NCBI GenBank assembly: GCA_024239015.1
Contig: JANBVM010000001.1
Location: 1-60,850 of the forward strand
Origin: Patescibacteria group bacterium
GTDB lineage: Bacteria; Patescibacteriota; Minisyncoccia; Minisyncoccales; JANBVM01
Length of the DNA: 60,850 nt
Direction of reading: 5' to 3'
Part shown: in pieces, positions 2,342 through 47,003 of the stretch
How positions within the stretch are numbered: position 1 is the first letter of the stretch
Layout of the letters: the number at the start of each line of letters is the position of its first letter
The notes under the pieces: generated by a model
What the model saw: the letters and a program-made list of their open reading frames with translations, nothing else
Told to the model about the DNA's origin: nothing
Database searches by the model: none
Made by a program: the position numbers and the translations under genes

Positions 2342-2597
2342 TTTAATTCACGTGATTAAAAATTTTAAATTTAATGTTATATCGTAAGTATCGATCGTAT
2401 TTATATATTATCGTCTGTAAATTTCTGTATAACAATCAAATTTTTCTTAATAAAAAAGTTCGAAGTTGAAGGGAACTATTAGAGAAACCAAAATTAAATA
2501 TTCATATTGGTTATCTTCCAATAATAGAAAAATTTTAAAATATAAAGAAAAAGAAAAACTAGTATTCAATAATATCAATTAGCTAATTTCTCAATTT

Positions 2598-2612
2598 TTC
2601 GTGAAACGGTTA
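2598..2612 (-). repeat. island motif, form B (TAACCG-TTTCACGAA read on the minus strand)
   Basis: The plus strand reads TTCGTGAAACGGTTA, an exact copy. It lies in the divergent spacer 2342-2872. Confidence 0.9.
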
Positions 2613-2735
2613 CGTGCTGAAAAGTACACTCAAATTGTCTATCTATTGAAAAATATAACCGGAGTTTTTTGTAAATTAAATCTTGGATTATTGAAATTCA
2701 TGATAAAATAAATGTTAAATTAGGTTCTGAATGGA

Positions 2736-2750
2736 TTCGTGAAATAACCG
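2736..2750 (-). repeat. island motif, form A (CGGTTA-TTTCACGAA read on the minus strand)
   Basis: The plus strand reads TTCGTGAAATAACCG, an exact copy. It starts 138 nt to the right of the 2598 copy. Confidence 0.9.
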
Positions 2751-2872
2751 ATAATTATTTGTCATTCGAAAAATCAGTATAGTATTAGTCTCATAAGAAG
2801 TAAATACCTTAATATTTTTATAAAACTCTGATATATTATTTTATAGATATCAAAATTTCATGGAGGTTAAAA

Positions 2873-3382
2873 ATGGTAAAAAAAACTATTTTTAAATTCA
2901 TTCAAGTTCAAAATAAATTAGGATTATCCGATTTAAATGATAGATTAGAACTAGATTTTGATAAAAGATTACTCATTCAGAAAGTTTTTTATTTTTTAAT
3001 TAAATTAGGTTTTGATTTTAAGCTAAAATATAACTTCTATAAGTATGGTCCTTATTCTCGAGAATTAGCTGATATTTATTTTGAATCCTCAGAATTTATA
3101 AGTATGAAAATTCATGAAAATTCAGAATATCATTTTAGTAGTAATGATGAGTTCGCTCTTACTAAACTTAAGAGTCTTTTGGAAAAATGGGGTGAGAACA
3201 CTCAAATTTGGGAATATTATTCAAGTCTCTTATTTATTCATGAAGATATGTATTTTAGAATATGGAACATTGAAAATGTAAAAGCTAAAATTGCTAGAGA
3301 GAAGCATGAACTTTTTGATAGATTCAAATTTGATTCAGTACTCCAAGAATTAAAAGAACTTGGTTTAATAACTAAACATTAA
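2873..3382 (+). CDS. Panacea/SocA-like (DUF4065-type) putative antitoxin
   Basis: 169 aa. LLIQKVFYFLIKLGFDFKLKYNFYKYGPYSRELADIY fits the K-L-x-K-L-L-Y...GP-x motif pair of Panacea domains. GGAGGT lies 8 nt before the ATG. The stop is 1 nt before the next start. Confidence 0.45.
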   Translation: MVKKTIFKFIQVQNKLGLSDLNDRLELDFDKRLLIQKVFYFLIKLGFDFKLKYNFYKYGPYSRELADIYFESSEFISMKIHENSEYHFSSNDEFALTKLKSLLEKWGENTQIWEYYSSLLFIHEDMYFRIWNIENVKAKIAREKHELFDRFKFDSVLQELKELGLITKH

Positions 3383-3383
3383 T

Positions 3384-4787
3384 TTGATTGATGTGAAGCG
3401 AATATTTGACCCCATTTATGGATTAATTGAACTTAATGACATAGAATCTCAAATTTTAGATACACCATTATTACAAAGGTTAAGGTATATAAGACAATTA
3501 AGTTTAGCTGAATTTGTATACCCTACAGCTACTCATAATAGATTTTCTCATTCTTTAGGAGTATTTCATATAACTGATAAAATAGGGAATATATTACAAA
3601 AATTTGACAATAAATTCATGAGCAATTACTATATAGATAATTTAAAGATGGCAGCTCTTTTACATGATATTGGACATTTGCCACTTTCCCATGCACTCGA
3701 ATTTTCTGAAAAAGAAGATGTTTGGAATAGATTACCTTCTTTCTTAAAATTAAATCATGAAGATTTAGGAGTGTATCAGATAAAAAATTCATACTTAAAA
3801 AATATCATAGAGAGTGTTGACGATCGTTATGATATCGATTTGATTTGCAATTTAATACAGGGTAATGATATAGCTGATAACCCAATTTTAAATAGAGTAA
3901 TAAATTGGGAATTAGATGCAGATCGACTGGATTATTTATTAAGAGATACATATTTCACAGGTGTAAAATTTGGTAGTATTGATTTTGATTATTTGGTAAG
4001 TAATTATGAAATATATAAAAATGAAAAACTTGTAGTTAACAAAAAAGCTTCAAGATCCATTGAAAATTTTCTAATTGCTAGATTCTCTTTATATGATCGA
4101 GTTTATACGCATAAAAATATATCCTATTATAATTTCTTCCTAAAAAACGTTACTAGTTTATTAATCGAAAATAGTCTATTTCCTTTATTTAAGAATGACT
4201 TAACATTTGATGAAATAATTTTAGATGAAGAAAAATCTGAATTAATTTATGAGTTAACTGATTTTTCATTATATGATAAACTCCTTCAATATTATTATCA
4301 TCAAAGGACCTTAGAAGAAAAAAGTGAAAGTATCTTACTAAATTTAAATTCAGTGTTATTTCGGAAAAAGAATCATAATATTTTTCAATATCAAAAAATA
4401 ACAAACCAAAAATCTGGCATTATTGAGTTGGTTGATGATAAAGTACTAACTTTAATAGAAAGTTTAAATGAAGAGTATAAAAACCAGATATATTTAGATA
4501 ATCCTAAAAATAGATTTACAAAATATCAATCAGTATTTTATCCTTCGATTGGATTAGATCAAGAAAAAATAAATGAAATTAAAGAACAAGAACTAAAATC
4601 AATCTGGATTACATCGGATAACGGTAATCCTCAATTATTTTACGAATGGACTGGAACTTATTTTAGAGAATTATATTCTTTTAAAAATATAAAATACTTA
4701 ATATATCTTGAAAAGAATAAAGAGAAATTAGCGGAAAAATATAGATCAATTGAAAATGATATAAAGAATCAGATAAATAAACTTTAA
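3384..4787 (+). CDS. HD-domain phosphohydrolase, SAMHD1/dGTPase-like (COG1078-type)
   Basis: 467 aa, TTG start. RLRYIRQLSLAEFVYPTATHNRFSHSLGVFH, AALLHDIGHLPLSHALE and DADRLDYLLRDTYFTGV form the canonical H...HD...D motif set of dNTP triphosphohydrolase-like HD proteins. Confidence 0.8.
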   Translation: MIDVKRIFDPIYGLIELNDIESQILDTPLLQRLRYIRQLSLAEFVYPTATHNRFSHSLGVFHITDKIGNILQKFDNKFMSNYYIDNLKMAALLHDIGHLPLSHALEFSEKEDVWNRLPSFLKLNHEDLGVYQIKNSYLKNIIESVDDRYDIDLICNLIQGNDIADNPILNRVINWELDADRLDYLLRDTYFTGVKFGSIDFDYLVSNYEIYKNEKLVVNKKASRSIENFLIARFSLYDRVYTHKNISYYNFFLKNVTSLLIENSLFPLFKNDLTFDEIILDEEKSELIYELTDFSLYDKLLQYYYHQRTLEEKSESILLNLNSVLFRKKNHNIFQYQKITNQKSGIIELVDDKVLTLIESLNEEYKNQIYLDNPKNRFTKYQSVFYPSIGLDQEKINEIKEQELKSIWITSDNGNPQLFYEWTGTYFRELYSFKNIKYLIYLEKNKEKLAEKYRSIENDIKNQINKL

Positions 4788-4822
4788 AGGAATTCTTTTT
4801 TATTAATGATTTGATATTTCAA

Positions 4823-4837
4823 TTCGTGAAACGGTTA
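4823..4837 (-). repeat. island motif, form B
   Basis: The plus strand reads TTCGTGAAACGGTTA, an exact copy. It lies 36 nt after the HD gene stop. Confidence 0.9.
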
Positions 4838-4960
4838 TCAAATTTAAAATAGAAATTAGAGCTCTGTTTCAACCGAATAGCGAATTCTATTAATTTAAAT
4901 CCTGATAATTTTAAACCAAATAATAATATTATAATGAAAAAGAGTACAAAGGAACTTGAA

Positions 4961-4984
4961 TTCGTGAAATAACCGTTTCACGAA
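4961..4984. repeat. complete 24-bp palindromic form of the island motif: TTCGTGAAA-TAACCG-TTTCACGAA
   Basis: Perfect 9-bp inverted arms flank a 6-bp asymmetric spacer. It contains form A (4961-4975, minus sense) and form B (4970-4984, plus sense) overlapping. It starts 138 nt to the right of the 4823 copy. It lies in the convergent spacer between stops at 4787 and 5040. Confidence 0.9.
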
Positions 4985-5039
4985 CTCACTTTCTTCTAGC
5001 TTGATATCTTCAAATCATTCTTAATCGTGAAAATTCTAT

Positions 5040-5882
5040 TTATTTATATCCATAAAAAACTTTCCAGAATTGGTCATCGAGAGGTATATTTCGAGGAAAA
5101 ATCATCATGCCATATCCTTTAAGTGTATAACCATCATGCCTATAAAACTTGTCTTCAATTAAAGTCATCAAATCATCACAATAGTCATTAAAAAATGCAC
5201 CTGGGCTTAAACCAAAATACTTCATAGCATATCTTCTCACCAAGTATGCTACGATGTCTGCTAATTGAACACCATTATGAATTATTGAATCAACAATAAA
5301 AGGTGTTTCTATAACTTGCTCGGGAAATTCATCCCAACCTTGTCCCGTACCATATTTTATGAAAGATTCTATTTCGTGACGTTTTTGTTCATCAAATTCG
5401 GGATCAACCGAATCCATTACTATCATTATATGCTGGTCTTTTTTTGGATGATTATCCATTACATAGCGGTTTAAACGTTCAATTAATAGTTTAAATGCCC
5501 AATTTGCTACTCCTACGTAATTTCCCTTCATAAAATGTTCCTTATGTACCACTATTGATACAATTTTTATAAACAATTTTGATAAAAAGGAATATATTTC
5601 CCGCCAGATACTTCTTAATTTATCGTCATCATCTCCAATAGACTTATAATATCCTTCCTTACGCGAAATTTCTTTCATGTGAAGTTCAAAATCTCCTGGT
5701 GGATCTTTCTGAAGTCCTTTATTTCTCACAAGATCCCAGATTTTACGTTTTAAATTTTTAATTTCCTGATGAATCCAATTCCAATATTGTTCATGAATAA
5801 TTAGAGCTGTTAAAACATAGAGTTTATTTTGTTTATTGTTAATATCCTTATTACCTGATTCATCAGCATAAGCGAAATACAT
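5040..5882 (-). CDS. DUF3800-family protein
   Basis: 280 aa. The N-terminal YADESGN and the C-terminal GVQLADIVAYLV are the two hallmark motifs of DUF3800. Confidence 0.6.
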   Translation of the reverse strand: MYFAYADESGNKDINNKQNKLYVLTALIIHEQYWNWIHQEIKNLKRKIWDLVRNKGLQKDPPGDFELHMKEISRKEGYYKSIGDDDDKLRSIWREIYSFLSKLFIKIVSIVVHKEHFMKGNYVGVANWAFKLLIERLNRYVMDNHPKKDQHIMIVMDSVDPEFDEQKRHEIESFIKYGTGQGWDEFPEQVIETPFIVDSIIHNGVQLADIVAYLVRRYAMKYFGLSPGAFFNDYCDDLMTLIEDKFYRHDGYTLKGYGMMIFPRNIPLDDQFWKVFYGYK

Positions 5883-6062
5883 TAAACTCTAACCACTTGA
5901 TTGTTATTTTAGTTTAATCTTTCACAATATTTATAGAATCTCCTTTCTTGGAGTTTTTATATAGGTTAAAATTTGGAAAGGAACAAGAATGAAAAAAGTT
6001 GATTTACTACCAAAATTTGCCAAAAATTTCGATAGGATTTTATAGACAGTGAAAGAATAGTT

Positions 6063-6740
6063 TTAAACACGAAGTCTTCTTCTATTTGGGTCTTTAATAC
6101 CAATATAACGTCGAATTCCAGAATGACCTCCTTCATTATATACATACCACAATCCCTCATCCCTTATTTTGTATTTTAAAGAGCAATTTTTACATTTTAT
6201 ATCGATATAATCTACTTTATCTTGGAAATCGATTTCTCCTTCACATTTAATGCATTTCATTTTTTCTTTTAATAGGAGCAATCTAAGACTTTCAATAAAG
6301 ATTAGATAGTTCTTGTTTATCATCGAATTAATTACATCCCAGGTTGAGTCCTTCAATGAATTAGAATTAAACACAGATATAGTTGAGCGTGAAGGTTTAT
6401 AGAATGAGATTTTTGGGTCAAAATATTGTCCGAGAGATCTTACAGATATGATATATATTTCTTTCTTTACTAAATCTGCTTTTATTACCTTGGCTGTTAG
6501 GTCAACTTGTTTAAAATACTTTTTGTTTTTAAACCAGTAAAGCATATAATCATAAGATTTTATTAACAATTTCTCAAATACTCGAAATAATATTAATGTT
6601 CCCAATGCTGATAGAATTGAGTATAAGACGATTAATGGATTAAGTGAATCTGTAAGAAAATTAAAAAGCCAAGTGAAAAGGCCTGAAAACAATGCACCTA
6701 TTACTACATATGTCAAATCATTTTTATCTGTTTTTTCCAT
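6063..6740 (-). CDS. hypothetical membrane protein with C-terminal zinc ribbon
   Basis: 225 aa. Two N-terminal hydrophobic helices (VVIGALFSGLFTWLFNFL, IVLYSILSALGTLILF). CIKC-x17-CKNC lies near the C-terminus. Confidence 0.5.
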   Translation of the reverse strand: MEKTDKNDLTYVVIGALFSGLFTWLFNFLTDSLNPLIVLYSILSALGTLILFRVFEKLLIKSYDYMLYWFKNKKYFKQVDLTAKVIKADLVKKEIYIISVRSLGQYFDPKISFYKPSRSTISVFNSNSLKDSTWDVINSMINKNYLIFIESLRLLLLKEKMKCIKCEGEIDFQDKVDYIDIKCKNCSLKYKIRDEGLWYVYNEGGHSGIRRYIGIKDPNRRRLRV

Positions 6741-6874
6741 CTTAATTCCTCAATAGTCCCTTTCTATTTTTACATTAATGTGTATAAAATTAAAATACTA
6801 TTATTAAGTGAATCTTTACCTTTTTTCATTATTTATTCTTTCAAATCCTTATTGTATTTTTATCAGCAAGATTT

Positions 6875-7186
6875 TCATAAAGGAATAATCTTAACACTAT
6901 GACTATACTGCTTTTTCATGTAGTTAGTTATTTCGAAATTTTTTTTTTGATATTCATCACTTAACTTAATTAAATGTCCTTGAGTGGGAATAATAGAAAT
7001 GAATGCTTTAATCTCGTCTTTAAAATCACTTACATTAATTTTATTCTGATTATCCACAAGCATTTTAAATGAATCAATTTGTTTTTGAATGAATTCAATA
7101 TTAGTTTCTTCTTTATTAATCTCTTTATACCAATGATACTTAACAAATGGAACTTTAATTTCTACATCGTGTCTTTTTTTTATCAT
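6875..7186 (-). CDS. hypothetical protein
   Basis: 103-aa ORF with ordinary composition. No motif recognised. Confidence 0.4.
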   Translation of the reverse strand: MIKKRHDVEIKVPFVKYHWYKEINKEETNIEFIQKQIDSFKMLVDNQNKINVSDFKDEIKAFISIIPTQGHLIKLSDEYQKKNFEITNYMKKQYSHSVKIIPL

Positions 7187-7382
7187 TATAAATTATTTAC
7201 TCGTTTTTATTTTATTTTATTTATATAATATTCACTATATAAATAAAAGAGTCACTCTTATAAATCATTTTATTAAACCGGAACCAAAATCACAATATAT
7301 AAATAAATAGAGGGTGCAGATTTACTAATTTTTTGTTTTATAGTTTTAAAATTTACATTAAAATCTTAAAAAAAATATAATT

Positions 7383-7397
7383 CGGTTATTTCACGAA
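7383..7397 (+). repeat. island motif, form A
   Basis: CGGTTATTTCACGAA, an exact copy, in the divergent spacer 7187-7613. Confidence 0.9.
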
Positions 7398-7613
7398 TGC
7401 GCACCTATCTCCTTTTTCAACTTAACCTTTTTTAAGTCATCATATCATATCTCTCCTCTCTAATTAAATTAATTATAGTTTTTCATATACTTCCCCTTAA
7501 TTTTTAGCTTTTTAAATAAAAAAAATCGGTTGTTATACAGGAATTTACTATTGATAATACTTAAATACGATTGATGCTTACAATAATACATTAGATAGTA
7601 AAATTAATATGAT

Positions 7614-7928
7614 GTGAAAAAAATGCGTAAAAATATGGTTCGCTTGTCTGATATTGAGCATGCTCAACTTGAAAAGGCGAGAGAGGAACTTATGAAGAGG
7701 GGACTTGAAAATTTACCTGAAATTAAGCCTATCTGCCCAAGTTGTAGAAGTGAGTTGGATGATTTTAAAATTAACTCAAAATATATAAAATGTTCTAATT
7801 GCGGTTATGAAGAGAAGAGCACTTCACTTACTGCTATAGGAAGTTTTGCTTTTGGAGCAATTGTAGGATTAGGTGCCGCTGCACTAATTTACCTTTTATC
7901 TAAAGACAAGAAAGAATCACAAAAGTAG
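7614..7928 (+). CDS. small membrane-anchored zinc-ribbon protein with RHH-like N-terminus (copy 2)
   Basis: The ORF track starts at GTG 7614. By comparison with copy 1 (MRKNMVRLSDIEHAQLEKAREELMKRGL...), the ATG at 7623 is the likelier start. CPSC-x14-CSNC plus a C-terminal TM helix. Confidence 0.6.
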   Translation: MKKMRKNMVRLSDIEHAQLEKAREELMKRGLENLPEIKPICPSCRSELDDFKINSKYIKCSNCGYEEKSTSLTAIGSFAFGAIVGLGAAALIYLLSKDKKESQK

Positions 7929-8431
7929 TGAAATTTATGTTAAAGATATTTATCTCTCATAGCACAAGAGATTATAAATTAGTTACAGCATTAGAAGTAT
8001 ATTTAAAAATAAAAGGTATATTGACCTATATTGCTGAAAATGATTGTCAAGTTGGAAGATCCTTATCAAGTAAAATAATTGAAAATTTAGAGAAAAGTGA
8101 TTACTTTTTAGTTCTATATACTAATAAAGGAAAAGAATCAGATTACGTCAATCAAGAAATTGGATATTGGATAAAAGCTCGCGGTTTTACTAATCTTATC
8201 CCTTTAGTTGAAAAGGGAATAATACCAGAAGGCTTCTTATCTGGATGTGAATATTTTGAATTGGATCCTAAAAATCATAATATTGGTTTGGATAAAATTG
8301 TTGATTACTTAGTACAAAAGAAAGAGGAATATGAAATAGAATTATTTGGAGATAACATAGTTGTAGGTTTAGGACTCTTAGGGCTTACGGCTTTGATACT
8401 ATATGGAATATATGTAGTTGTGAAAGAATAG
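7928..8431 (+). CDS. TIR-like domain protein with C-terminal transmembrane anchor (copy 2)
   Basis: KIFISHSTRD and SDYFLVLYTNKGKESDYVNQEIGYW, with C-terminal LGLLGLTALILYGIY. The GTG start overlaps the upstream TAG by 1 nt. An ATG at 7937 is an alternative start. Confidence 0.6.
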   Translation: MKFMLKIFISHSTRDYKLVTALEVYLKIKGILTYIAENDCQVGRSLSSKIIENLEKSDYFLVLYTNKGKESDYVNQEIGYWIKARGFTNLIPLVEKGIIPEGFLSGCEYFELDPKNHNIGLDKIVDYLVQKKEEYEIELFGDNIVVGLGLLGLTALILYGIYVVVKE

Positions 8432-8645
8432 AACAATTATTATACCTTACATTTGAATAGGTTAAAAGCAAATTTTAATTTCTCATTTTGAATTACCTAA
8501 TAAATAAATATGTGCTAAAACCTTTTGTGAAATTGCTTAGAAACAAAGAATTTGAGTTCAGTTTAAATTGGTTGTAATTATAATTATATTAATTAACCAA
8601 TTACAAGTGAACTAATTAATTAAGGGTAAAGAAATCCAAGATCTT

Positions 8646-9836
8646 TTGGAAAAATTTGTATTGGACCCTGATTTAGCTACTTTAGTAGCTAATCTCAATG
8701 TATTTAATGTAATGAATGTGTTAAAAGTTGAGACTTCTGAAACCGTCTTCTCATCATTTTTGGCTTGGTTACTTAACCCGAGGGAAAATCATGGTCTCGG
8801 ATCTTATTTTCTAAAATATTTCTTGATGAGATGCGCGAAAATTTCAAATATTTTTACCGTCATTGACATTGATAAGTTAAATCTAAGTAATAGTATTGTT
8901 AGAACAGAAGAAAATTTTCATGGTACAAGAGCGGATATAACAATAAGAATTGACGATATAAATCTAATGAAATTTGGATGCTTAATTGAAAATAAAGTAA
9001 AATCCACAGAAGGCGAAGAGCAAACTAAGAATTATGTGAAATATTCAAAGATAAAATATCCAAAATATGATTTTATGTATGTTTATCTTACTCCTTTTGG
9101 TGAAGATGCCGATTCCAAAGAGTTTATATCAGTAAGTTATGAATCTGTTAAAGAATTATTAGTTCAAACAATTAACGCAAATAAAGATAATTTAAATGAA
9201 GAAATTTTGAATTTAATACAGCATTTTTTATATAATTTAGAGGAAAATATATTGAATAAAGGAAAAATTGTAGATTTATGTAAAATAATTTATGAAAAAC
9301 ATAGAGAAGCAATTGAGGCTATTATTGCGAATAAGCCACAGCATATTAAAATAATTGAAGAGGAAATCAAGGAATTACTTATTGATTTACCAGGTGAGTG
9401 GATGACGCACCCAACAAAGACCGATTGCTACGTATTTAAGAAACAATGGTTAGAAGATTTTCGTGAATTTAATATAGGAAATCTAGTTCCATTTTTCTTT
9501 TATAACGTACACTCTTGGAATAGCGAATCATTGTATATCGCGGTACAGTTATACATAGACAGAACAAAAGAATGGAAATTAGATGTTAGAGAATTATTTA
9601 CAGAAATTATTGAAAATAAAATAGACAAATCTGGTGTAAAGCCATTTCTCTATAATAAACAAAATATAGCAAAAAAAATCAAAGATATCGTAATAAAAGA
9701 GGGTTATGAAAATGACCAGGACTTGAAAGATGTAGCTTTGAAAATGAAGGATTTAATTGATGCAACAATCGGAGTTATTGATAACACCGTTGAAGAATTA
9801 AAAAATAAGCTCTCTAATTTGAAAAATGAAAAATAA
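8646..9836 (+). CDS. PD-(D/E)xK nuclease superfamily protein (PDDEXK_4/pfam14281-like)
   Basis: 396 aa. FSSFLAWLLNPRENHGLGSYFLKYFL, RADITIRID and LIENKVKSTEGEEQTKNY match the conserved N-terminal block and the D...E-x-K core of that family. Confidence 0.55.
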   Translation: MEKFVLDPDLATLVANLNVFNVMNVLKVETSETVFSSFLAWLLNPRENHGLGSYFLKYFLMRCAKISNIFTVIDIDKLNLSNSIVRTEENFHGTRADITIRIDDINLMKFGCLIENKVKSTEGEEQTKNYVKYSKIKYPKYDFMYVYLTPFGEDADSKEFISVSYESVKELLVQTINANKDNLNEEILNLIQHFLYNLEENILNKGKIVDLCKIIYEKHREAIEAIIANKPQHIKIIEEEIKELLIDLPGEWMTHPTKTDCYVFKKQWLEDFREFNIGNLVPFFFYNVHSWNSESLYIAVQLYIDRTKEWKLDVRELFTEIIENKIDKSGVKPFLYNKQNIAKKIKDIVIKEGYENDQDLKDVALKMKDLIDATIGVIDNTVEELKNKLSNLKNEK

Positions 9837-10072
9837 GGATCTTTTTCCCAATATTTAGTGGCCTTATCCTACTCTTGGAGAGACATCCTTCCTCCAATAC
9901 ATAAAATTTCTGTTATGACTTATCATTTCAGATTTCTAATAAAATTATTGAGCTCGTACATTATAAGCCTTAACAAAATCTGAAGATTGGCAAGATCAAC
10001 ATTGCGTTGTTAAAAATTTAGAGCTTTTAGAATTCATTAATTCGCTCAAATTCAAGAGATTGAGATAAAATT

Positions 10073-10838
10073 CTTCAAAAAATGTCCATTACAAATTATT
10101 AACCCATGAGCGTATGTTAAGTTATATATCTTAAAAGAAAATAAAGATAAGCATGTTAAACTTAATAATATTCTGAAATATAAGAAAGTTCTTTTTCTAA
10201 CTGTTATAATTGTGCTAGAAATTATTTTATTAGTTTTATTTACAATCCTGTTTATTACAACTAACATAGAATTTTATAAACTTATAGTTGAATTATTAAG
10301 AAATTTTATAATATTAACCAGTGTAGTAACCGCTTTAACAATCCCATTTGTTATGAAAGATATTGAAGAAAAGAAAAGAGAAGTGGAGTTAAGAGATCGA
10401 ATAGAAACAGTTATCAATGAACTTAAAAATTATTTTGAAATTATTATCTCTTCTAAATTTGAAGAACTCCCAAAAAAAAATCTTTACATTCATCCTCAAT
10501 TTCAATTTTTTAAATCCATTGGTAGGAAAGAACCTGAATTCTTAAAGAAACTCGGTATCGATATTTCAAGTTATACTAGTACTTCAAGAAGTGGAACTCA
10601 ATCTGAAGGAGGTAGTTTAATTATCCTAAACATTTATAGATTACGTGGTGGTTATCAACCAACTCTTATTTTTATAAGCACAGAAAATGAATTTTCGGAC
10701 TTACCGGATTCGTATGAAATTCTTTTAAAAAAAATCATTGAAAACGCAGAAAAATTTTTTTCCGTAACATTAGATAAAAATTTATGCTCCTTATCAGATG
10801 ATCTCAAATCAGGTTATTTAGAAGTAACAAAACGTTGA
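10073..10838 (+). repeat. direct repeat copy 1 (~770 bp: gene plus ~90-140 nt upstream), partner at 25543..26315
   Basis: The upstream block AAATTATTAACCCATGAGCGTATGTTAAG matches AAATTATTAACCCAATAGCGTATGTTAAG, and homology continues through the CDS. Proteins are about 80% identical by eye. Confidence 0.8.
10212..10838 (+). CDS. hypothetical membrane-anchored protein (paralog of 25629..26315)
   Basis: 208 aa from GTG. The frame is open from 10110 and still encodes the paralog N-terminus (HVKLNNILKYKKVLFLTVII versus MIKINDILKYKIVLFLFVII), but the paralog ATG aligns with CAT here. One N-terminal TM helix. Confidence 0.5.
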   Translation: MLEIILLVLFTILFITTNIEFYKLIVELLRNFIILTSVVTALTIPFVMKDIEEKKREVELRDRIETVINELKNYFEIIISSKFEELPKKNLYIHPQFQFFKSIGRKEPEFLKKLGIDISSYTSTSRSGTQSEGGSLIILNIYRLRGGYQPTLIFISTENEFSDLPDSYEILLKKIIENAEKFFSVTLDKNLCSLSDDLKSGYLEVTKR

Positions 10839-11083
10839 ATTATACATAAAAAATTTAGCTACAATATACCTAGCGAGATTTTTCATAATTCCCGATGCTG
10901 AAACTGTCTTGGTGACTCCTTTTGAATCAATTCAAGATATATCTAACTATGTCAATTTGACACCATCAAATTCAACTTATGAAATCCATATAGATCCTGT
11001 TAATTATACTGTGGATGAAACTCCGCGGAACTTAAATCAATTTTTAAATAATTATGAACAAGTTAGAGTGTAAATCTTAAAAA

Positions 11084-11097
11084 TTCGTTAAACGGCT
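11084..11097 (-). repeat. degenerate island-motif copy (form B-like)
   Basis: The plus strand reads TTCGTTAAACGGCT, against TTCGTGAAACGGTT. It is intergenic. It is the only copy right of 4984 with this polarity, apart from bare arms. Confidence 0.35.
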
Positions 11098-11383
11098 GGT
11101 ACTTAACTCATTTATCACGAGTAATTGTAAAGCTACTACTAATATCAAAGAACAAATTTGGGTGTCAGAAGTGTCAATTTCGTTCAAGGATGGGAAATTT
11201 TTCGCAATCAGATTAAAAAAAAAGTAAATTAATCCAATAGTACTTAATCACTAATCATTCTCAAGAGATTCAATATTATTCAAGCAAACATCAATTCTAT
11301 TATATATTTGTTTTTTCAAAGTTCCACTAAAACTAGGAGCAATTGTTAGAAGATCGAATAACTCCTCTTCTAATTTAATTATT

Positions 11384-11899
11384 TCATATTCTTTTCTTCG
11401 AGATTTCATTAGCTATTAACTCACATATTTTTTCTGAACTAATATTTGGACTTAATGTAATTCCAATTCCCTTTAAAATCATAAATTCAATCTTTCGGTC
11501 GTTTATCCATTTATAAGGATTTTTATCAAGTATCTGATCATAATAATTTATGAAGTTGTCCATCGAAATAATCCAACAAAATTCTTGCTTAAGAGCAAAA
11601 TTCAATATAAACTCGTCAGCTACCTTACTAGATTCTATAATTATTCCTTCTTCTAGCAATCCCCTAAATTCATTTTGTTTATCTATTTCATTGAGAAGAT
11701 TTGGGTCGCAAATGGGAAATGTCCTATGTTCAGAGAAACCCAATCCATTCAAATGATTTAACAATAATTTTATATCCCCAAATCTTGGATTTTTTGTTCG
11801 ATTATAACGATGTCGAGCCACATTATTTAAATCAATGCAAAGGGGAAATTGAATTAAAAATGGCAATTTTCGAAAAATACTTTCTAACATAAAGATCAA
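11384..11899 (-). CDS. NYN/Zc3h12a-like ribonuclease domain protein (putative)
   Basis: 171 aa. LCIDLNNVARHRY (IDGSNVA-like), PICDP and ADEFILNFALKQEFCWIISMDNFINY (D-x-F...IVSND-like) follow the Zc3h12a/NYN acidic-residue pattern. Confidence 0.45.
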   Translation of the reverse strand: MIFMLESIFRKLPFLIQFPLCIDLNNVARHRYNRTKNPRFGDIKLLLNHLNGLGFSEHRTFPICDPNLLNEIDKQNEFRGLLEEGIIIESSKVADEFILNFALKQEFCWIISMDNFINYYDQILDKNPYKWINDRKIEFMILKGIGITLSPNISSEKICELIANEISKKRI

Positions 11900-12026
11900 T
11901 AGTTAAGATTATATTTAAAACAATGTTTATTACATAACTATTTGACGTTCTCATGGATCAATTATAAAAAAATATACACATCCATTTTACATAAGCTTTT
12001 TAAATTGTATTCATCTATTTTTACTA

Positions 12027-15000
12027 ATGTCAATCGAAAAAGTTATTGGGAATATTATTGAAATTTTAAAAGAATTTTATGATTTAGATTTAATTCAAAT
12101 AGAAGCATTGAAAAATTCTGATGATAAATTAGTAATCTCTAAAGAAATTCTTAAAATCCTATTTAAGAATAATATATCTTCTGTAAGGAACGAAAAAAAG
12201 GATAAAAAGGAAGAAAAGAAAAAAATAAAGCGGTATACATCTCATTGTACTTTAAGACATAGATTTCCTAAATTTTTAGCGAAAGCAAAACAAGAGGAAT
12301 TCATAGAATTAGTTATAGAATTACTAGCAGATTGTCAACTGCATATAACTATAATAATTGGTGGTGGGAATACTAATTACTTCTATATTTCGGGTTTAGA
12401 ATCAATAATTAATCTTCTATTGAATATAGATTTAGATGGTATTTTTGAAAAAAAAAAAATTAAAGAGATGTTTGATAAGCCTTGTTTAATCTACTTTAAA
12501 GAAGGTTTTATGGAAAAAATCTTTGGTCCTGACGGATTACTAAAAAAAAAAGGATTTTCCATTCCAAAATTTATTGAAACTGTAAGTTTACAAAATGAGT
12601 TTTCTAGACAGAATGTATACAATTGGAAAAAAGGAGGTTATTTTCCTGTTAATTTCTTTAAAATTTTTATGATTCGATTTGAACAATTTAACGATTACTA
12701 TAGATATATAGATTATGTAAAGATTGGAAATTCAAATAAAATTTCAAAAGATTTATTAAATAAAATTTTTGAACAAATAAAAAATTTTGAAAAGTATATC
12801 AGTCATTCAGAGCTTAATGAGATTTTTAAACAATTCAATATTGTTCAAAGATTAAATATAATTGAAAAATATGATGATTTAATTAAGAATGTCCAAAATG
12901 AGAGAGAAATTAAATATTTGGATTATGTTGAGTTAATTAGATCTAAATTTGATATTTCAGACGATAGAACGTTAATAAAATCTGTTGAATTAGTAAATTT
13001 TAAGTCTTATAAAAGAGAAAAGATTGATTTTGAATCAGGAATTAATATATTATATGGCAAAAATGGCAGTGGAAAAACGTCATTGATCGAAGCCGTATTA
13101 TTTGCTTTATTACGATTGCATCCCCAACATTCTTTATATTATAATCCTGATCCTTCAGAATCTAGGAGTCCCGCTTATATTTTTTTACTAAACACTTGGC
13201 TTATACGAGCCGGGGAAGAGGTTTGTGAAGTTAAATTGACTTTAAAAATAAGGGAAAAGGAAATAATAATCGTCAGGAGTATTTCTAGAGATTTAACTCA
13301 AGAATTAAAAATATTTGATGGGGATGAAGAAATACCTCTTATATCCTTTAAAAAAGATCCAAATATTCCATCTTTGGTGATCAATTCATCCGAAATAAAA
13401 TTATTACATCTTGACAAAGAAGAGTGTCTTGAAGAGGCTCAAATTTATTCTGAAAATCAAGAACTTTATACTGAGTTTATATTCAGTGAATTTGAAAAAC
13501 GTGGACTATTTTTTGAAAAGAACGAAATTTTTTCCTCATTTTTTAATGAATACCACTTTTTCTGGGATTGGGATGAGATAAATAAAAGAAAGCGTAAAAT
13601 AAAAAATTACTATAGGAATAAATTCCGAATGAATTATTTATACAATTTAATCAAGGATCTAAAAAGAAAACGAATAAAATTACTGTGTAATCAAGCGAAG
13701 TTAATCTCCTCATTGAAAAAAAACTTGGATGATATGGAGCTCTATACTGATATTAATGAAAATAAATACTATAAAATTACTTCTGGAGAATGTATTAAAT
13801 GCAATGATATATGTGAAAGTGAAGATGGTGACAGATATCATTTTAACGAGTTACTGGAACAAGGTTATATTAGTAAAGATAATTTTTTTAAGACTTACTA
13901 TCCTGTTGAGACTCACCATGGAACAACTTGTCAGAAATGTGGAGCATACTATTGCGATTATCATCATCAATGGATGGATTATGATTGTGAAAAATGTGAT
14001 AATGACTTAGAAGCTAACTTATACAGAAGAAGAGAATTACATGTGTTACCTTCTCAGTTTTTGAAAATTCTTAAGTTTTCTTCCAATATCGATGAAAAGA
14101 TCTATGAAGAAATCTATAGAGACAATTATAACCAATTTAAAAGAATTGTAAAACAAGAGAAATATCATCCTTTATTAGTTGAGAATTTTGATCTAGAACT
14201 AGATAATCACTGTTTTAATGAAATTTCATTAATTTATGAACTTTTAATCCATCATTATACTTATATAATCGAATCATTAAAATTTCTATTATTAGGAGGA
14301 CAGGAACCGAATTTAAATTCACTTATAAAAAACATCGAAACGTTCAATAAGAGAGATAAGATAAATCCAAATATAGATTATATTAATCATATTGTATTGA
14401 TAATTATCTTTTATATCCAGAATTTAATCTCAAACAATTCAACAATTTTAATTAGGCTTGATTTATTGATAAAAGATACTATGAAAAGTTGTTATAACTC
14501 TTCATCTCAAATTCACCATTTATCATCTTCCTCTATCGAAACCTCAATGTATCGTATTCTTTATAATACAATAAATCTCTTGAAAAGTCCTTTATTTAGT
14601 CGCATTGATCACCTAATCGAAGCCCACCAAGGTGATATTGATGATTTTTTGCAAATTTATGAAAAACACTTTCACAATTCTCTCTCAAAAAGATATTATG
14701 GATTTATATATGGTGAAATTAAGATAGTGAAGACACCACAGAAAGATTATCATCCAAATATAATTTATTATGGCGAATATGATATTCAAAAATATCTTGA
14801 GACTGATTTTAATGTATTTGTTACCCAAGTTGAAAATGTAATGAAAATAATAAGTTGGGTAAAGAAAGTTTCAGAGAAATTGAAAAAAAATACTGAAGAA
14901 ATAGAAAATCTTGAAGATAGGATTAATTTTATCAAAGAACATTCTGCTCTAATTTATAAAAATGTGTTTATTAAATTTTTAAATGAGGAATTAAAGAGAT

Positions 15001-15380
15001 TGGCTCCTAAAATATTTAAGGAATCAAATAAATTTTATGGTTTTCTAGATGAAGATAGTTTCCATAAAATACAGTTTCAAAATGGAAAAATCGCACCCCT
15101 CAACATACTTAGCAATGGGGAAAAGAGCAAGTTCTTTTTAGCTCTCATTTGTATTTTAGCCAACCTCTCAAATAACAGCTTATTCTTTTTAATTGACGAA
15201 CCTAATGAATTATTGGATACTGAAAATATTAGTATCATCAAGGACTTTTTCTCACCACTTTTCAGGACTAAACAATTGATTCTTTGTACTTATATCAAGA
15301 AATATCTCGAAACAGAACCAACTCAGAAATTTGAGGTTAGAAAACATTTGGATGGGACATCATATATCGAAGAGAAATAA
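12027..15380 (+). CDS. Rad50/SMC/RecF-like ABC ATPase with ~320-aa N-terminal extension and central Cys cluster
   Basis: 1117 aa. VELVNFKSYKREKIDFESGINILYGKNGSGKTSLIEAVLFAL is the SMC_N head with Walker A. LSNGEKSKFFLALICILA is the signature motif and FFLIDEPNELLD is Walker B, both at the C-terminus. The long helical middle carries CIKC...CQKCGAYYCDYHH...CEKC. Confidence 0.7.
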   Translation: MSIEKVIGNIIEILKEFYDLDLIQIEALKNSDDKLVISKEILKILFKNNISSVRNEKKDKKEEKKKIKRYTSHCTLRHRFPKFLAKAKQEEFIELVIELLADCQLHITIIIGGGNTNYFYISGLESIINLLLNIDLDGIFEKKKIKEMFDKPCLIYFKEGFMEKIFGPDGLLKKKGFSIPKFIETVSLQNEFSRQNVYNWKKGGYFPVNFFKIFMIRFEQFNDYYRYIDYVKIGNSNKISKDLLNKIFEQIKNFEKYISHSELNEIFKQFNIVQRLNIIEKYDDLIKNVQNEREIKYLDYVELIRSKFDISDDRTLIKSVELVNFKSYKREKIDFESGINILYGKNGSGKTSLIEAVLFALLRLHPQHSLYYNPDPSESRSPAYIFLLNTWLIRAGEEVCEVKLTLKIREKEIIIVRSISRDLTQELKIFDGDEEIPLISFKKDPNIPSLVINSSEIKLLHLDKEECLEEAQIYSENQELYTEFIFSEFEKRGLFFEKNEIFSSFFNEYHFFWDWDEINKRKRKIKNYYRNKFRMNYLYNLIKDLKRKRIKLLCNQAKLISSLKKNLDDMELYTDINENKYYKITSGECIKCNDICESEDGDRYHFNELLEQGYISKDNFFKTYYPVETHHGTTCQKCGAYYCDYHHQWMDYDCEKCDNDLEANLYRRRELHVLPSQFLKILKFSSNIDEKIYEEIYRDNYNQFKRIVKQEKYHPLLVENFDLELDNHCFNEISLIYELLIHHYTYIIESLKFLLLGGQEPNLNSLIKNIETFNKRDKINPNIDYINHIVLIIIFYIQNLISNNSTILIRLDLLIKDTMKSCYNSSSQIHHLSSSSIETSMYRILYNTINLLKSPLFSRIDHLIEAHQGDIDDFLQIYEKHFHNSLSKRYYGFIYGEIKIVKTPQKDYHPNIIYYGEYDIQKYLETDFNVFVTQVENVMKIISWVKKVSEKLKKNTEEIENLEDRINFIKEHSALIYKNVFIKFLNEELKRLAPKIFKESNKFYGFLDEDSFHKIQFQNGKIAPLNILSNGEKSKFFLALICILANLSNNSLFFLIDEPNELLDTENISIIKDFFSPLFRTKQLILCTYIKKYLETEPTQKFEVRKHLDGTSYIEEK

Positions 15381-15488
15381 CACATTAGATAATAGATAAA
15401 ATATTTACACTAAACTCTGCAGCGTCTAAAAAGTTTTTTAATAATTTGATATTTAAAGTATGAGATATTATGAATAGAGTGGAGATAT

Positions 15489-15833
15489 ATGATAAATTTA
15501 GATATTTTAGAAAATTTAAAAGCAATTAAACAAAGAATACTAGCCTTATTAATAACAAATGATTTTATAACTGATTCTTCTTCAATAGAAGATGAACGGT
15601 CAATGAACTGGAATTTTTACCAAGAAAATAAAGAATTCATAGATATAATTGATGGAATACTAGAAAACATGAAAGTATTAATCATACCTTCAGTAGAAAA
15701 TAAATCACAAATTCTCAAAATAATCAATTGGATACAAAATACCAACTATGATAATATTTCATTAGAAGAGATTCAGGATTATTTAGAAGAACGAACTATT
15801 GATAAGTTAGAATTAGAAAATCGTTTTCAGTAG
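15489..15833 (+). CDS. hypothetical acidic protein
   Basis: 114 aa. GTGGAG lies about 6 nt before the ATG. No motif recognised. Confidence 0.45.
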   Translation: MINLDILENLKAIKQRILALLITNDFITDSSSIEDERSMNWNFYQENKEFIDIIDGILENMKVLIIPSVENKSQILKIINWIQNTNYDNISLEEIQDYLEERTIDKLELENRFQ

Positions 15834-16082
15834 TAACAATTATTAAATTGGTAATAGAAATAAACTTCATCTTAGTTTTAAATTCATTAAAAATAAATAC
15901 AGATGAGTTTAACTTATAATACCACACGCACTAATTAAAATCATATAATGGACTTTTTGGTATCGACAAGAAGGTTTCCATACTACGGTTGAGAGTTTTT
16001 CTATAAAAATATTATCAGATGTAAATCGGTCTGAAATTGAAATCGACAGAATTTTCCGTGGAAATAATTTTTAACAATTATT

Positions 16083-16097
16083 CGGTTATTTTGCGAT
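16083..16097 (+). repeat. island motif, form A variant
   Basis: CGGTTATTTTGCGAT, 12/15 matches to form A. Intergenic. Confidence 0.6.
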
Positions 16098-19930: not shown

Positions 19931-19945
19931 TAACCGTTTCACGAA
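19931..19945 (+). repeat. island motif, form B
   Basis: TAACCGTTTCACGAA, an exact copy, in the convergent spacer 19879-20326. Confidence 0.9.
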
Positions 19946-21739: not shown

Positions 21740-21754
21740 CGGTTATTTTACGAA
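21740..21754 (+). repeat. island motif, form A variant
   Basis: CGGTTATTTTACGAA (14/15). It ends 2 nt before the stop codon of 21757..23178. Confidence 0.8.
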
Positions 21755-25509: not shown

Positions 25510-25524
25510 TAACCGTTTCACGTA
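25510..25524 (+). repeat. island motif, form B variant
   Basis: TAACCGTTTCACGTA (14/15), in the divergent spacer 25413-25628, about 20 nt left of the 25543 repeat boundary. Confidence 0.8.
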
Positions 25525-25542
25525 AATGATTAAGCAAGTCAT

Positions 25543-26315
25543 CTTCAAAAAAAAATATTAATCTTTATAAATTATTAACCCAATAGCGTATGTTAAGATA
25601 AATATTTTAAAAGAAAATATAAATTAACATGATAAAAATTAATGATATTCTGAAATACAAGATAGTTCTTTTTCTATTTGTTATTATTGTGGTAGAAGTT
25701 ATTTCATTAGTATTATTTACAATCATGTTAATTACAACTAAAATAGAATTTTATAAACTTATCATTGATTTATTAAGAGATTTAATAATATTAACCAGTG
25801 TAGTAACCGCTTTAATAATCCCATTCGTAATGAAAGGTATTAAAGAAGAGAAACGAGAAGTAGAGTTAAAAGATCGAATAAAAACGGTTATTAATGAACT
25901 TAAAAATTATTTCGAAATTATTATCTCTTCTAAATATGAGGGATTACCAAAAAAAAATCTTTACATCCCTCCTCAATTTCAATTTTTTAAATCCATTGCA
26001 AGAAAAGATCCTGAATTCTTAAAAAAACTCGGTATTGATATTTCACTTTTCACCAGTACTTCAAAAAGTGGAACTCAATTTGAAGGAGCTACTTTAATAA
26101 TATTAAATATTTATAGATTACGTGGTGGTTTTCAACCAACTCTTACTTTTATAAGCACAGATAATGAACATTCTGAGTTACCGGATTTATATGAAATTCT
26201 TTTAAAAAAATTCATTGAAAACGCGGAAAAAGATTTTTCCATAACATTAGATAAAAATTTATGCTTCCTATCAGACAATCTTAAATCAAGCTATTTAGAA
26301 GTAATCAAACATTGA
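25543..26315 (+). repeat. direct repeat copy 2, partner of 10073..10838
   Basis: See 10073..10838. Confidence 0.8.
25629..26315 (+). CDS. hypothetical membrane-anchored protein (paralog of 10212..10838)
   Basis: 228 aa with an intact ATG. TM helix (IVLFLFVIIVVEVISLVLFTIMLI). About 80% identical to the 10212 product. Confidence 0.55.
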   Translation: MIKINDILKYKIVLFLFVIIVVEVISLVLFTIMLITTKIEFYKLIIDLLRDLIILTSVVTALIIPFVMKGIKEEKREVELKDRIKTVINELKNYFEIIISSKYEGLPKKNLYIPPQFQFFKSIARKDPEFLKKLGIDISLFTSTSKSGTQFEGATLIILNIYRLRGGFQPTLTFISTDNEHSELPDLYEILLKKFIENAEKDFSITLDKNLCFLSDNLKSSYLEVIKH

Positions 26316-26466
26316 AATTTTTATAACATAATTGCCTAAAAGAGTCATCTATTCATTAATATTAGTATATCTCATTTAATTCTCGATAGAGAACTATAGA
26401 TATATTGGAATCTTTATTAATAATTAGCATTAATATTTTCTTTTTATTATATATTTGAAAGAGCTT

Positions 26467-26481
26467 AGGTTATTTCATGAA
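26467..26481 (+). repeat. island motif, form A variant
   Basis: AGGTTATTTCATGAA (13/15), in the convergent spacer 26316-26513. Confidence 0.6.
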
Positions 26482-28304: not shown

Positions 28305-28319
28305 CGGTTATTTCACGAT
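28305..28319 (+). repeat. island motif, form A variant
   Basis: CGGTTATTTCACGAT (14/15), in the divergent spacer 28000-28516. It is preceded by a 21-nt tandem duplication that contains a second CGGTTA (28284-28289). Confidence 0.85.
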
Positions 28320-29450: not shown

Positions 29451-29465
29451 TAACCGTTTCACGAA
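29451..29465 (+). repeat. island motif, form B
   Basis: TAACCGTTTCACGAA, an exact copy, 65 nt after the stop of 28517..29386. Confidence 0.9.
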
Positions 29466-32042: not shown

Positions 32043-32057
32043 CGGTTATTTCATGTA
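32043..32057 (+). repeat. island motif, form A variant
   Basis: CGGTTATTTCATGTA (13/15), 17 nt after the RNase III-like stop, in a convergent spacer. Confidence 0.6.
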
Positions 32058-36970: not shown

Positions 36971-36985
36971 CGGTTATTTCACGAT
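36971..36985 (+). repeat. island motif, form A variant (last copy in the window)
   Basis: CGGTTATTTCACGAT (14/15), 126 nt upstream of the helicase gene start. Confidence 0.85.
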
Positions 36986-40515: not shown

Positions 40516-40522
40516 AGTTAAA

Positions 40523-43171: not shown

Positions 43172-43189
43172 TTTTATAGAGGCAAAAAT

Positions 43190-46033: not shown

Positions 46034-46097
46034 ATTATAAAATACTAATCATTAGAATCTTGAAAAAAAGCAATTAAAAGATTTAAAATTTCAAAAA

Positions 46098-47003
46098 ATG
46101 AGTCTTATAAAAGATTATTCAGGACCGAAAAGGTATAAACTATTTAAAGTTACATTAGAAGTTTTTGATAAACTGGGAGGTTCTGGAAGAATTGATGAAA
46201 TTCATGAGAAAATTATTGATCTTCTCAATTTAACAGAGGAAATTATTGATTATCCACACGGAGATAGTGGTAGAAGTTATCAAACGGAGCTTGAATATCA
46301 GTTAGCATGGGTAAGAACGATGTTAAAGCATCTGGGTTTAATAAACAATACAAAACAAGGTGTTTGGGTATTAACACAAAAAGCAAAGGAAAGTGATTGG
46401 GACAATAATTACATTGCAGAAAAATATAGAGAATACCTAAAAAATGAAAAAGAAAAGAAACAAAAATCAAAAAATGGAATGGATACTGTAGTCACTCATG
46501 ATCCTGAATTTATAGAAGATATATATGAAGATGAAAAGGAATTAAATTGGAAGCAAAAATTGAAAAACACTCTTACTACTATGAATCCTTATGATTTTGA
46601 AAAACTTACTCAAATTATCCTTAGAGAATGTGGATTTATGGAAGTCGAAATAACAAAAAAGAGTGGAGATGGTGGTCTTGACGGTAAGGGAATATTCCGC
46701 CTTAATAACTTAGTTAGCATCCCTGTAATTTTTGAATGCAAAATATATAAAGACCCTGTCGGAGCAGATAAAATCAGGAATTTTAGAGGAGCAATGCAGG
46801 GAAGAGCAAACAAAGGTTTATTTTTAGCCACAAGTACATTCACAAGAGCTGCAAAAGAGGAGGCAGCTCGAGAAGGAGCTGATTTAATAAATCTTTTAGA
46901 TGGTGAAAAAGTTATAGATCTTCTTAAAGAACTTGAACTCGGTGTTTCGGTGAAAATGGTTGAAAAAGTGGAAATTGATCAGGAATGGTTTGAAAATCTT
47001 TAA
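46098..47003 (+). CDS. mrr: Mrr-family restriction endonuclease (Mrr_N winged helix + Mrr_cat)
   Basis: 301 aa. YDFEKLTQIILRECGFMEVEITKKSGDGGLDGKGIF...IPVIFECKIYKDPVGADKIRNFRGAM...KGLFLATSTFT is the canonical Mrr catalytic core. Confidence 0.85.
   Translation: MSLIKDYSGPKRYKLFKVTLEVFDKLGGSGRIDEIHEKIIDLLNLTEEIIDYPHGDSGRSYQTELEYQLAWVRTMLKHLGLINNTKQGVWVLTQKAKESDWDNNYIAEKYREYLKNEKEKKQKSKNGMDTVVTHDPEFIEDIYEDEKELNWKQKLKNTLTTMNPYDFEKLTQIILRECGFMEVEITKKSGDGGLDGKGIFRLNNLVSIPVIFECKIYKDPVGADKIRNFRGAMQGRANKGLFLATSTFTRAAKEEAAREGADLINLLDGEKVIDLLKELELGVSVKMVEKVEIDQEWFENL

Follow-up and report, generated by a model that had tools for sequence, protein, structure and literature searches.

The 60,850-nt stretch of DNA analysed here (hereafter the window; contig JANBVM010000001.1, positions 1 to 60,850 of the forward strand) carries a 24-base palindrome, TTCGTGAAATAACCGTTTCACGAA, at positions 4961-4984. 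This palindrome, to which no strand is assigned, consists of a 9-bp arm TTCGTGAAA, an asymmetric 6-bp spacer TAACCG and the inverted arm TTTCACGAA. We propose, with a probability of about 0.7, that it is the only complete core site for a recombinase whose gene lies elsewhere, situated within a two-sided array of modules that carry no recombinase themselves. The enzyme is probably a tyrosine recombinase of the Xer/XerA kind, for which the palindrome would be a dif-like site. Shorter half copies of the palindrome bound the modules and all point towards it, and the same architecture, with one complete site per contig, is conserved in Asgard archaea.

With three mismatches allowed, the palindrome matches only itself in the window and gave no match in 100 shuffled sequences; likewise, no second complete site occurs in 686 kb. 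The sequence-only reading, which had described 4961-4984 as the only complete copy, was therefore right on this point. The 9-mer arm is found 10 times in the window compared with 0.64 expected, and the 15-mer formed by arm and spacer has 13 matches with at most three mismatches, compared with 1.6 expected. The palindrome is situated inside a 252-nt gap between the stop codons of two converging open reading frames (ORFs), 3384-4787 (+) and 5040-5882 (-), and the window has a G+C content of 26-30%. One arm-only copy, ATCGTGAAA, which lacks the spacer, lies 40 nt to the right of the palindrome at 5024-5032 (+), on the 'wrong' strand, and may be due to chance. The GC skew of the window shows no switch at 5 kb, although a 60-kb piece is uninformative about the position of the terminus.

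The other sites retain one conserved arm each, the second arm being variable. These half sites occur in two forms, a distinction that had gone unnoticed in the sequence-only reading: in f1 the arm is followed by TAACCG, and in f2 by CGGTTA, the same 6-mer inverted. There are two forms because the spacer is asymmetric, and the palindrome reads as f1 on one strand and as f2 on the other. To the left of the palindrome, the good half sites are all on the plus strand. They comprise a degenerate f1 site at 397-411 (TACGTGAAATAATCG followed by A), which also precedes the nucleotidyltransferase (NTase) gene in three other contigs (L105, L106 and L107; contigs are given L numbers throughout), an f2 site at 2598-2612, an f1 site at 2736-2750, and an f2 site at 4823-4837, 138 nt left of the palindrome. 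To the right, all good half sites are on the minus strand. The nearest is an f1 site at 7383-7397, whose spacer is inverted relative to that of the palindrome, followed by f2 at 19931-19945 (exact), f1 at 21740-21754 (one mismatch), f2 at 25510-25524 (one mismatch), f1 at 26467-26481 (two mismatches), f1 at 28305-28319 (one mismatch), f2 at 29451-29465 (exact), f1 at 32043-32057 (two mismatches) and f1 at 36971-36985 (one mismatch), the last being the outermost right site and the right edge of the array. A further f1 candidate at 16083-16097 (-), ATCGCAAAATAACCG followed by A, has three mismatches and is uncertain. All good half sites in the window are intergenic; over its first 37 kb, about one separates each functional gene group from the next, and no further sites were found between 37 and 60.8 kb. 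On the left, the array ends with an f1 site, 8.7 kb from the palindrome and beside MGMT, Imm63 and nucleoside-hydrolase genes. At this locus, the half sites thus extend about 9-32 kb from the palindrome and are confined to module boundaries.

To see where else the palindrome occurs, we scanned one genome per prokaryotic species for exact matches to its central 20-mer. Ten of the 11 matches were found in metagenome-assembled genomes (MAGs) of Asgard archaea with 26-31% G+C, one in each of these incomplete genomes; they belong to Promethearchaeota/Lokiarchaeia, with one labelled Hodarchaeota and three labelled only "uncultured archaeon". The eleventh match (L002:1335-1354), in a Bacteroidaceae MAG with 48% G+C, was left out, as there the 20-mer stands amid several CGTGAAAT-containing repeats and probably belongs to an unrelated repeat family. 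A metagenome scan added 93 contigs, each with one copy of the palindrome. In about 30% of these metagenome contigs, the palindrome is no more than about 180 nt away from a contig end, which is what one would expect of a strain-variable hotspot. The window itself is 99.99% identical over 10.4 kb to an ENA scaffold (ERZ23500248 scaffold_45), and its left flank matches the MAG contig CAZALK010000004.1. The genes beside the palindrome differ almost everywhere and include ParA-like, PIN, Piwi, McrB-like, OLD-like and UDG-like genes, among others. In one Promethearchaeota MAG, for instance, a 492-aa Piwi-domain protein (short Argonaute-like; L005:2620-4098, -) directly adjoins the complete site. The sequence-only reading had considered that relatives might have the same gene pairs without the palindrome; the relatives found here have the palindrome with different genes.

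The polarity seen in the window holds at every locus. Of the half sites with at most one mismatch, 133 of 133 (132 of 132 after removal of two duplicate contigs) follow the same rule, with plus-strand copies to the left of the palindrome and minus-strand copies to the right, so that every half copy in the 104 independent contigs points towards the single complete site of its contig. A position weight matrix was built from 129 half sites (79 f1 and 50 f2). It showed that conservation is limited to 15-16 nt and that the flanks are uninformative: variation is essentially absent from eight arm positions and from all six spacer positions, and the first arm base is T or A (W). The base after f1 is A in 82% of cases, while the base after f2 is other than A. 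The integrity of the sites does not decay with distance from the palindrome, and they are intact up to 32 kb away.

A polarity that is absolute and flips at one point would also suit a motif for chromosome organisation, in which the 15-mers bind a replication-termination, translocase-guiding or origin-binding protein (analogues of Ter, KOPS or ORB) and converge on a terminus or dif-like palindrome. The f2 form (GTGAAACGG) loosely resembles what we take to be the archaeal ORB cores. Short polarised sequences that point towards dif are indeed known in Euryarchaeota (PMC2958812). However, in the window the sites are restricted to module boundaries and reach no further than about 9-32 kb from the palindrome. 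Furthermore, the exact inversion of the 6-mer between the two forms is what a crossover spacer predicts and is hard to fit to a binding motif, and, as described below, contigs compared with each other differ by DNA inserted exactly at arm plus spacer, and the ends of homology are 7-fold enriched at the sites. This explanation is thus quite improbable.

The arrangement of the two forms is also regular. With all loci turned to give TAACCG in the palindrome, the closest site on the left was f2 in 20 of 28 cases and the closest on the right f1 in 41 of 45; in 61 of these 73 cases (84%), therefore, the nearest neighbour carries a spacer opposite in orientation to that of the complete site. Moving outward, the spacer forms alternate in 106 of 132 neighbour pairs. 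Neighbours of the same form are further apart (median of 2.26 compared with 1.33 kb), which suggests that some sites were missed between them. In two contigs, f1 and f2 are nearly back to back (7070-7035 nt left of the palindrome in L048, and L005:7789-7835; 6 and 17 nt apart), so some junctions have two sites.

Such regularity bears on the possibility that the modules are nested transposons with terminal inverted repeats, where the palindrome represents two abutted ends, like the junction of an insertion sequence (IS) circle, and further copies were inserted there. The left and right arms do form inverted-repeat pairs, and abutted inverted repeats a few bp apart are known intermediates in the IS3, IS30 and IS256 families. 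Nested insertion, however, requires the same form at the i-th left and right ends, in conflict with the f2 and f1 preferences of the left and right neighbours. In addition, no transposase was found, no target duplications were seen, and in the cases examined the insert lies on one side of the anchor flank. We therefore give this explanation very little credence.

Comparisons between contigs identify the sites as junctions. L016 and L038, both from one sample set, share 98.7% identity up to ...TTCGTGAAATAACCG; beyond this point L016 continues with TTTCACGAA, whereas L038 has 2.27 kb of other DNA, after which comes a complete site with the variant left arm ATCGTGAAA, as if this arm had been carried in by the insert. 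The same insertion pattern is present in L079 compared with L048 (7 kb) and in L101/L024 compared with L057 (2.5 kb), and in the two closest pairs the identity of the flank (98.7 and 97.7%) runs through arm and spacer. Integration at a core site is expected to regenerate one complete site and leave one defective site, and this outcome was observed in all three comparisons. Moreover, a 650-nt module in the L101/L024 and L057 comparison is delimited at both ends: its homology runs from 3 nt after f2 to the final spacer base of the following site, and this following site is complete in two genomes but only an f1 half site in the third. Similarly, the window module at 25525-26466, together with the arm of the f2 site at 25510-25524 to its left, matches an L090 module (228-aa gene, 25629-26315 in the window); in L090 its neighbour is the complete site, in the window a half site. 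In the pairs L044/L099, L024/L028, L047/L086 and L055/L097, the palindrome marks the point where homology begins or ends. Of 275 homology ends in total, 74 fall within 40 nt of a site, compared with 3.8% for random positions, a 7-fold enrichment. Together with the polarity in 104 contigs, these breaks support the earlier suggestion that the palindrome is a recombination junction at which motif polarity switches. Strand exchange anywhere within the shared 15-16 nt would fit the data.

No recombinase gene was found linked to the sites in the 737 kb around the 104 sites. Pfam searches of the window ORFs revealed no integrase, transposase or tyrosine recombinase, and neither array edge has a transposase or an integron integrase. 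A regular expression for the catalytic motif of tyrosine recombinases returned one loose, implausible match only, and a phmmer search of the six-frame translations of the 737 kb, using an unverified E. coli XerD query, gave no matches. Clustering of the 566 ORFs from all loci likewise revealed no common family, the largest cluster covering 8 loci and having no Pfam match.

Based on these observations, the following mechanism can be proposed for a recombinase acting from elsewhere. The core site would consist of two inverted 9-bp recognition arms around the 6-bp asymmetric crossover spacer, and each module would comprise one conserved arm, its cargo (mostly antiviral defence and toxin-antitoxin genes) and one non-conserved end. 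A circular module with a half site, that is arm, spacer and variable arm, would recombine with the complete site. This would regenerate one complete site beside the newcomer and leave a half site on its far side, with the conserved (outer) arm pointing back at the complete site. Repeated integration on either side would then produce an absolute polarity that flips at the palindrome. Of the two forms, f1 would keep the TAA-side arm and f2 the CCG-side arm. A neighbouring site with the same spacer orientation as the complete site would allow the module to be excised again, whereas a neighbour with an inverted spacer would permit inversion only, which flips the module and moves the complete site one module outward. 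Since modules next to inverted-spacer neighbours could not be excised, alternating arrays would be deletion-proof and stable, matching those seen. The site may also be the dif of the chromosome.

Some of the same features would be expected of a shufflon-like multi-inversion switch, in which a dedicated invertase encoded elsewhere employs the half sites as functional sfx-like sites and shuffles the defence modules in order and orientation for phase-variable immunity, while acquisition is secondary. As in sfx sites, the half sites have a conserved core plus one arm; they are intact up to 32 kb from the palindrome, their spacer orientation alternates, and the same module is mirror-placed in different genomes (L001/L061, L017/L095, L049/L055 and L050/L059). 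However, no invertase gene lies beside any array, the modules are complete operons with their own gene orientations rather than alternative exons, and no near-identical pair that differs by an inversion was found. The observed insertion and deletion differences, moreover, require integration and excision and not inversion alone. Such a switch overlaps with the recombinase-site explanation favoured here instead of excluding it, and as the primary role of the arrays we consider it unlikely.

Several points weigh against a core site served by a recombinase encoded elsewhere. No recombinase was found, and a XerA gene in these genomes is putative. Simple integration predicts neighbours in the same orientation, yet 84% are inverted, and the first inverted site is unexplained by it. 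The arms of 8-9 bp are shorter than the 11 bp of known Xer sites, and the similarity to P. abyssi dif, judged by eye, amounts to about 12 of 28 positions, including the inner AA-N6-TT positions. Among contig pairs of at least 94% identity we found no recent inversions, and homologous cargo at 65-90% identity occurs in all four classes of side and orientation. A fixed orientation of the cargo relative to the polarity was considered and rejected, given these four classes among diverged homologues. In addition, the stretch from -60 to +70 in L049 and that from -950 to -820 in L055 (relative to the palindromes) share the same module and about 50 nt of homologous opposite flank, where the site is complete in one contig, while the other retains only TAACCG and the right arm, its left arm being replaced by TTGGTAATTC; a shared opposite flank is unpredicted by the simple crossover model. 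Viral contigs contained no palindrome, and their f1 and f2 matches were single, unrelated and at chance level. No circular module, virus or plasmid carrying the site was found, although the collection may lack such circles. Finally, the exact 20-mer had no match in cultured Asgard genomes.

The sequence-only reading placed the palindrome at the symmetry centre of a mirrored 6.9-kb segment. An inverted repeat is indeed present, at 1537-2456 and 7509-8430 (73-83% identical), or by alignment at about 1530-2500 and 7465-8437 (78.7% identical over 978 nt). It consists of two diverged copies of a gene pair encoding a TIR-domain protein and a small Zn-ribbon membrane protein, the left copy (1530-2500) on the minus strand and the right copy (7465-8437; about 79% identical and mirrored) on the plus strand. 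As claimed, the midpoint of the repeats lies at about 4983, which the alignment bears out and which is 10.5 nt from the palindrome centre at 4972.5. Only the TIR gene pairs at the ends are mirrored, however, and the interior (2500-7465) is not: in blastn and tblastx comparisons of 2500-4972 with the reverse complement of 4973-7465, only the motif itself matched.

This geometry invites the view that the palindrome is the axis of a palindromic duplication or large inversion, with the TIR modules as remains of a hairpin-mediated duplication centred on the site. The two modules are in mirror orientation, and their distances from the palindrome, 2464-3431 and 2485-3457 nt, agree to within about 21 nt. 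Against this, the left and right modules between the TIR copies are not related to each other, and one is about 190 nt longer than the other (2210 and 2398 nt between sites), so that the equal distance arises from unrelated stretches and looks like a coincidence. The TIR copies themselves are only about 79% identical, and their homology stops 65-100 nt short of the nearest motif, so the TIR pair cannot define module ends. Furthermore, of the 29 loci with at least 1.5 kb on both sides of the palindrome, only that of the window has mirrored homology around it, and both the polarity and the half sites reach 32 kb beyond the repeat. The duplication axis offered in the sequence-only reading is thus largely refuted and, in our view, highly improbable.

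A second suggestion of that reading was a hairpin on either transcript. The palindrome might accordingly be a bidirectional terminator hairpin, or the palindromic operator of a regulator of defence genes, and the converging genes in the window as well as a stem of 9-10 bp (fold of the single-stranded DNA of -9.4 kcal/mol, z = -4.4) would agree with this. Elsewhere, however, the palindrome lies between 15 divergent, 13 convergent and 18 tandem gene pairs. Half sites, which lack the second arm, form no hairpin, and their strand is independent of whether the flanking genes are divergent, convergent or tandem, which argues against a promoter or terminator. In addition, there is only one copy per contig and one match per genome, and no Rfam match was obtained at gathering thresholds in the whole window. 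A role as terminator or operator is therefore hardly credible.

Besides single half sites, the arrays contain a gene-less unit of 153 nt, in which f2 is followed by 123 nt and then by f1 or the complete site. Two of its 15 copies are in the window: the first, on the plus strand at 2598-2750, runs from the f2 site at 2598-2612 to the f1 site at 2736-2750 and shares its internal sequence with L004, L039, L097, L098 and L102, and the second (4823-4975) is formed by the f2 site at 4823 with the left arm and spacer of the palindrome. The others are L004:63-216, L007:2761-2914 and 11 more. In fourteen units, from 12 contigs, f1 follows f2 at a spacing of 137-139 nt, and in the fifteenth at 134 nt. 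The unit falls into three sequence subfamilies conserved between genomes, with a weak TTAAAA 5-10 nt after f2. A structured RNA was considered and rejected, as the consensus fold is only weak (-7.8 kcal/mol) with little covariation. The unit may be a miniature module or an accessory sequence.

According to Pfam, the whole window is a defence island, with TIR, HD, DUF3800, PD-(D/E)XK (PDC-S26) and SMC-like ATPase proteins, a NERD-UvrD helicase, a DNA methyltransferase, SocA/Panacea, nSTAND3 and an HD-CE/HATPase protein, and the stretches between the motifs correspond to discrete defence or toxin-antitoxin systems. No tRNAs were found in it. The left neighbour module of the palindrome (2751-4822, +) encodes a 169-aa protein and an HD-domain protein of 467 aa. 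On the right side, the adjoining module (4985-7382, -) encodes a DUF3800 protein together with 225-aa and 103-aa proteins, the latter of which recurs in L033 and L071. Beyond it, successive site-bounded modules fill the right-hand array (7398-36970), in the order PD-(D/E)XK (PDC-S26), SMC-like ATPase, CBM96-domain and Ig-domain/EEP-nuclease proteins, NERD-UvrD helicase, N6/N4 methyltransferase, SocA/Panacea and nSTAND3.

Within this array, the 8.7 kb at 7398-16082 have no good site despite several apparent systems, namely the TIR pair, PD-(D/E)XK, 208-aa and 171-aa proteins and a 1117-aa SMC-like ATPase. The gene of the 208-aa protein (10212-10838) is a paralogue of 25629-26315, which has a site, and of the module beside the palindrome in L090; upstream of it, near 10000, no arm could be recognised. 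This stretch probably represents modules that became fused as the sites between them decayed. Immediately beyond the outermost right site, a DISARM-like operon (SNF2 helicase with NOV_C domain, DUF1156 methyltransferase and a 947-aa protein), followed by Mrr, occupies 37111-47003, and homologous pieces are present in L047, L061, L087, L104 and L076. Near the right end, a β-lactamase-fold/RMMBL protein of the β-CASP-type RNA-metabolising family is encoded at 58634-60220, where the island may pass into core genes. At the opposite end, positions 1-842 correspond to 7954-10304 of the near-identical scaffold L106, but the two differ by some 1.5 kb, located between two copies of the gene for a 98-aa nucleotidyltransferase (MNT). 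In L106, MNT-HepT is accompanied by two small ORFs and another MNT gene. Homologous recombination between the MNT copies, causing a deletion or duplication, appears to account for the difference.

Taking these data further, we tentatively suggest that some Asgard archaea of the Lokiarchaeia type possess an undescribed platform that builds and continually reshuffles defence islands, although we hold this broader proposal with less than even confidence. Here, the one complete site would "walk" through the array by inversions while a host recombinase, possibly XerA, captures, flips and releases modules. The present finding provides a concrete and testable mechanism for Asgard defence islands, and points to the gain and loss of genes cassette by cassette in the archaeal lineage closest to eukaryotes. 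In practice, the 24-bp site and its 15-16-bp partner sites allow hypervariable regions to be located by sequence alone, and module boundaries defined by sites should aid in cataloguing candidate new defence systems, since a good number of the cargo genes belong to no known family. Should the enzyme be XerA, the site would be a handle on dif and the terminus, and we found no earlier report of archaeal elements that exploit Xer. The presence of one symmetric and many asymmetric sites would also be a natural test of the ideas on symmetry derived from shufflons (inversion versus excision), and genome engineering could gain a new recombinase together with its set of sites.

The four half-site 15-mers looked for were absent from the literature searched, which also contained nothing equivalent on Asgard archaea with Xer, defence hotspots or recombinases. 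A 2021 review of archaeal tyrosine recombinases mentions neither Xer-exploiting elements (IMEX) nor Asgard (PMC8371274). According to a 2024 paper, the only non-viral integrated elements earlier known from Asgard were the Heimdallarchaeial "aloposons", to which that paper itself added Asgard transposons, integrative elements and defence islands (PMC11529989). The layout proposed here, a two-sided array of swappable defence modules that is conserved in many Asgard genomes, has no counterpart in the literature searched.

The closest analogues are Xer-exploiting elements, Acinetobacter pdif modules and shufflon sfx sites. The palindrome shares with Xer/dif sites the inverted arms around a 6-bp spacer and the intergenic position, but its plan is 9-6-9, with arms shorter than the 11 bp of the archaeal 11-6-11 plan, for example ATTGGATATAA-TCGGCC-TTATATCTAAA in P. 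abyssi (PMC2958812). As in IMEX (CTX and TLC phages, the gonococcal island and Legionella LME-1), the core site was found once (here in each contig or incomplete MAG), the recombinase is not encoded by the element, integration regenerates one good site and leaves a defective one, and elements stack beside the site. In contrast to IMEX, the host here is Asgard, the arrays extend on both sides with ten or more modules that are mostly for defence, and the half sites keep arm and spacer perfectly in two alternating spacer orientations; a link to dimer resolution and XerA is putative.

In Acinetobacter, pdif modules alternate in orientation and undergo inversions and deletions between sites with matching spacers (PMC13141974). 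They likewise are small modules without a recombinase between Xer-type sites (with resistance or toxin-antitoxin genes there, defence or toxin-antitoxin genes here), and the alternation of site orientation is mirrored by that of the spacer in the present arrays. The C and D module classes have their counterpart in modules bounded on the TAA side or the CCG side. However, every pdif site is two-armed, whereas here one site is complete and the rest have one arm, always the outer one. The present modules are also chromosomal instead of plasmid-borne, the host is archaeal, and the arms are palindromic, probably for a single recombinase, compared with distinct XerC and XerD arms.

Integrons (IntI, attI and attC), which have also been reported in Archaea, resemble the arrays in their adaptive cassettes without a recombinase, uniform polarity and one special insertion site. 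They differ in that here no integrase is adjacent, the sites have 15-24 bp compared with 60-140 bp for folded attC, inspection of the sequence revealed no RYYYAAC/GTTRRRY signature, the array is two-sided, and the multi-gene modules have their own orientation. In the R64 shufflon (Rci, sfx), as here, the site has a conserved core plus one conserved arm, and the other arm is variable. There, the whole site alternates and rci is adjacent, and the segments are alternative 3' ends of one pilin gene, whereas here the arm polarity is fixed per side, only the spacer flips, and whole defence operons have no recombinase next to them. The asymmetry of sfx sites restricts them to inversion, while artificially symmetric sites also excise (PMC11852207), which fits one symmetric site among many asymmetric ones. 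The parts of the present system are thus of known kinds, and what is new is their geometry in Asgard, in which a single complete site is flanked on either side by polar half sites whose spacers alternate, with defence genes as cargo.

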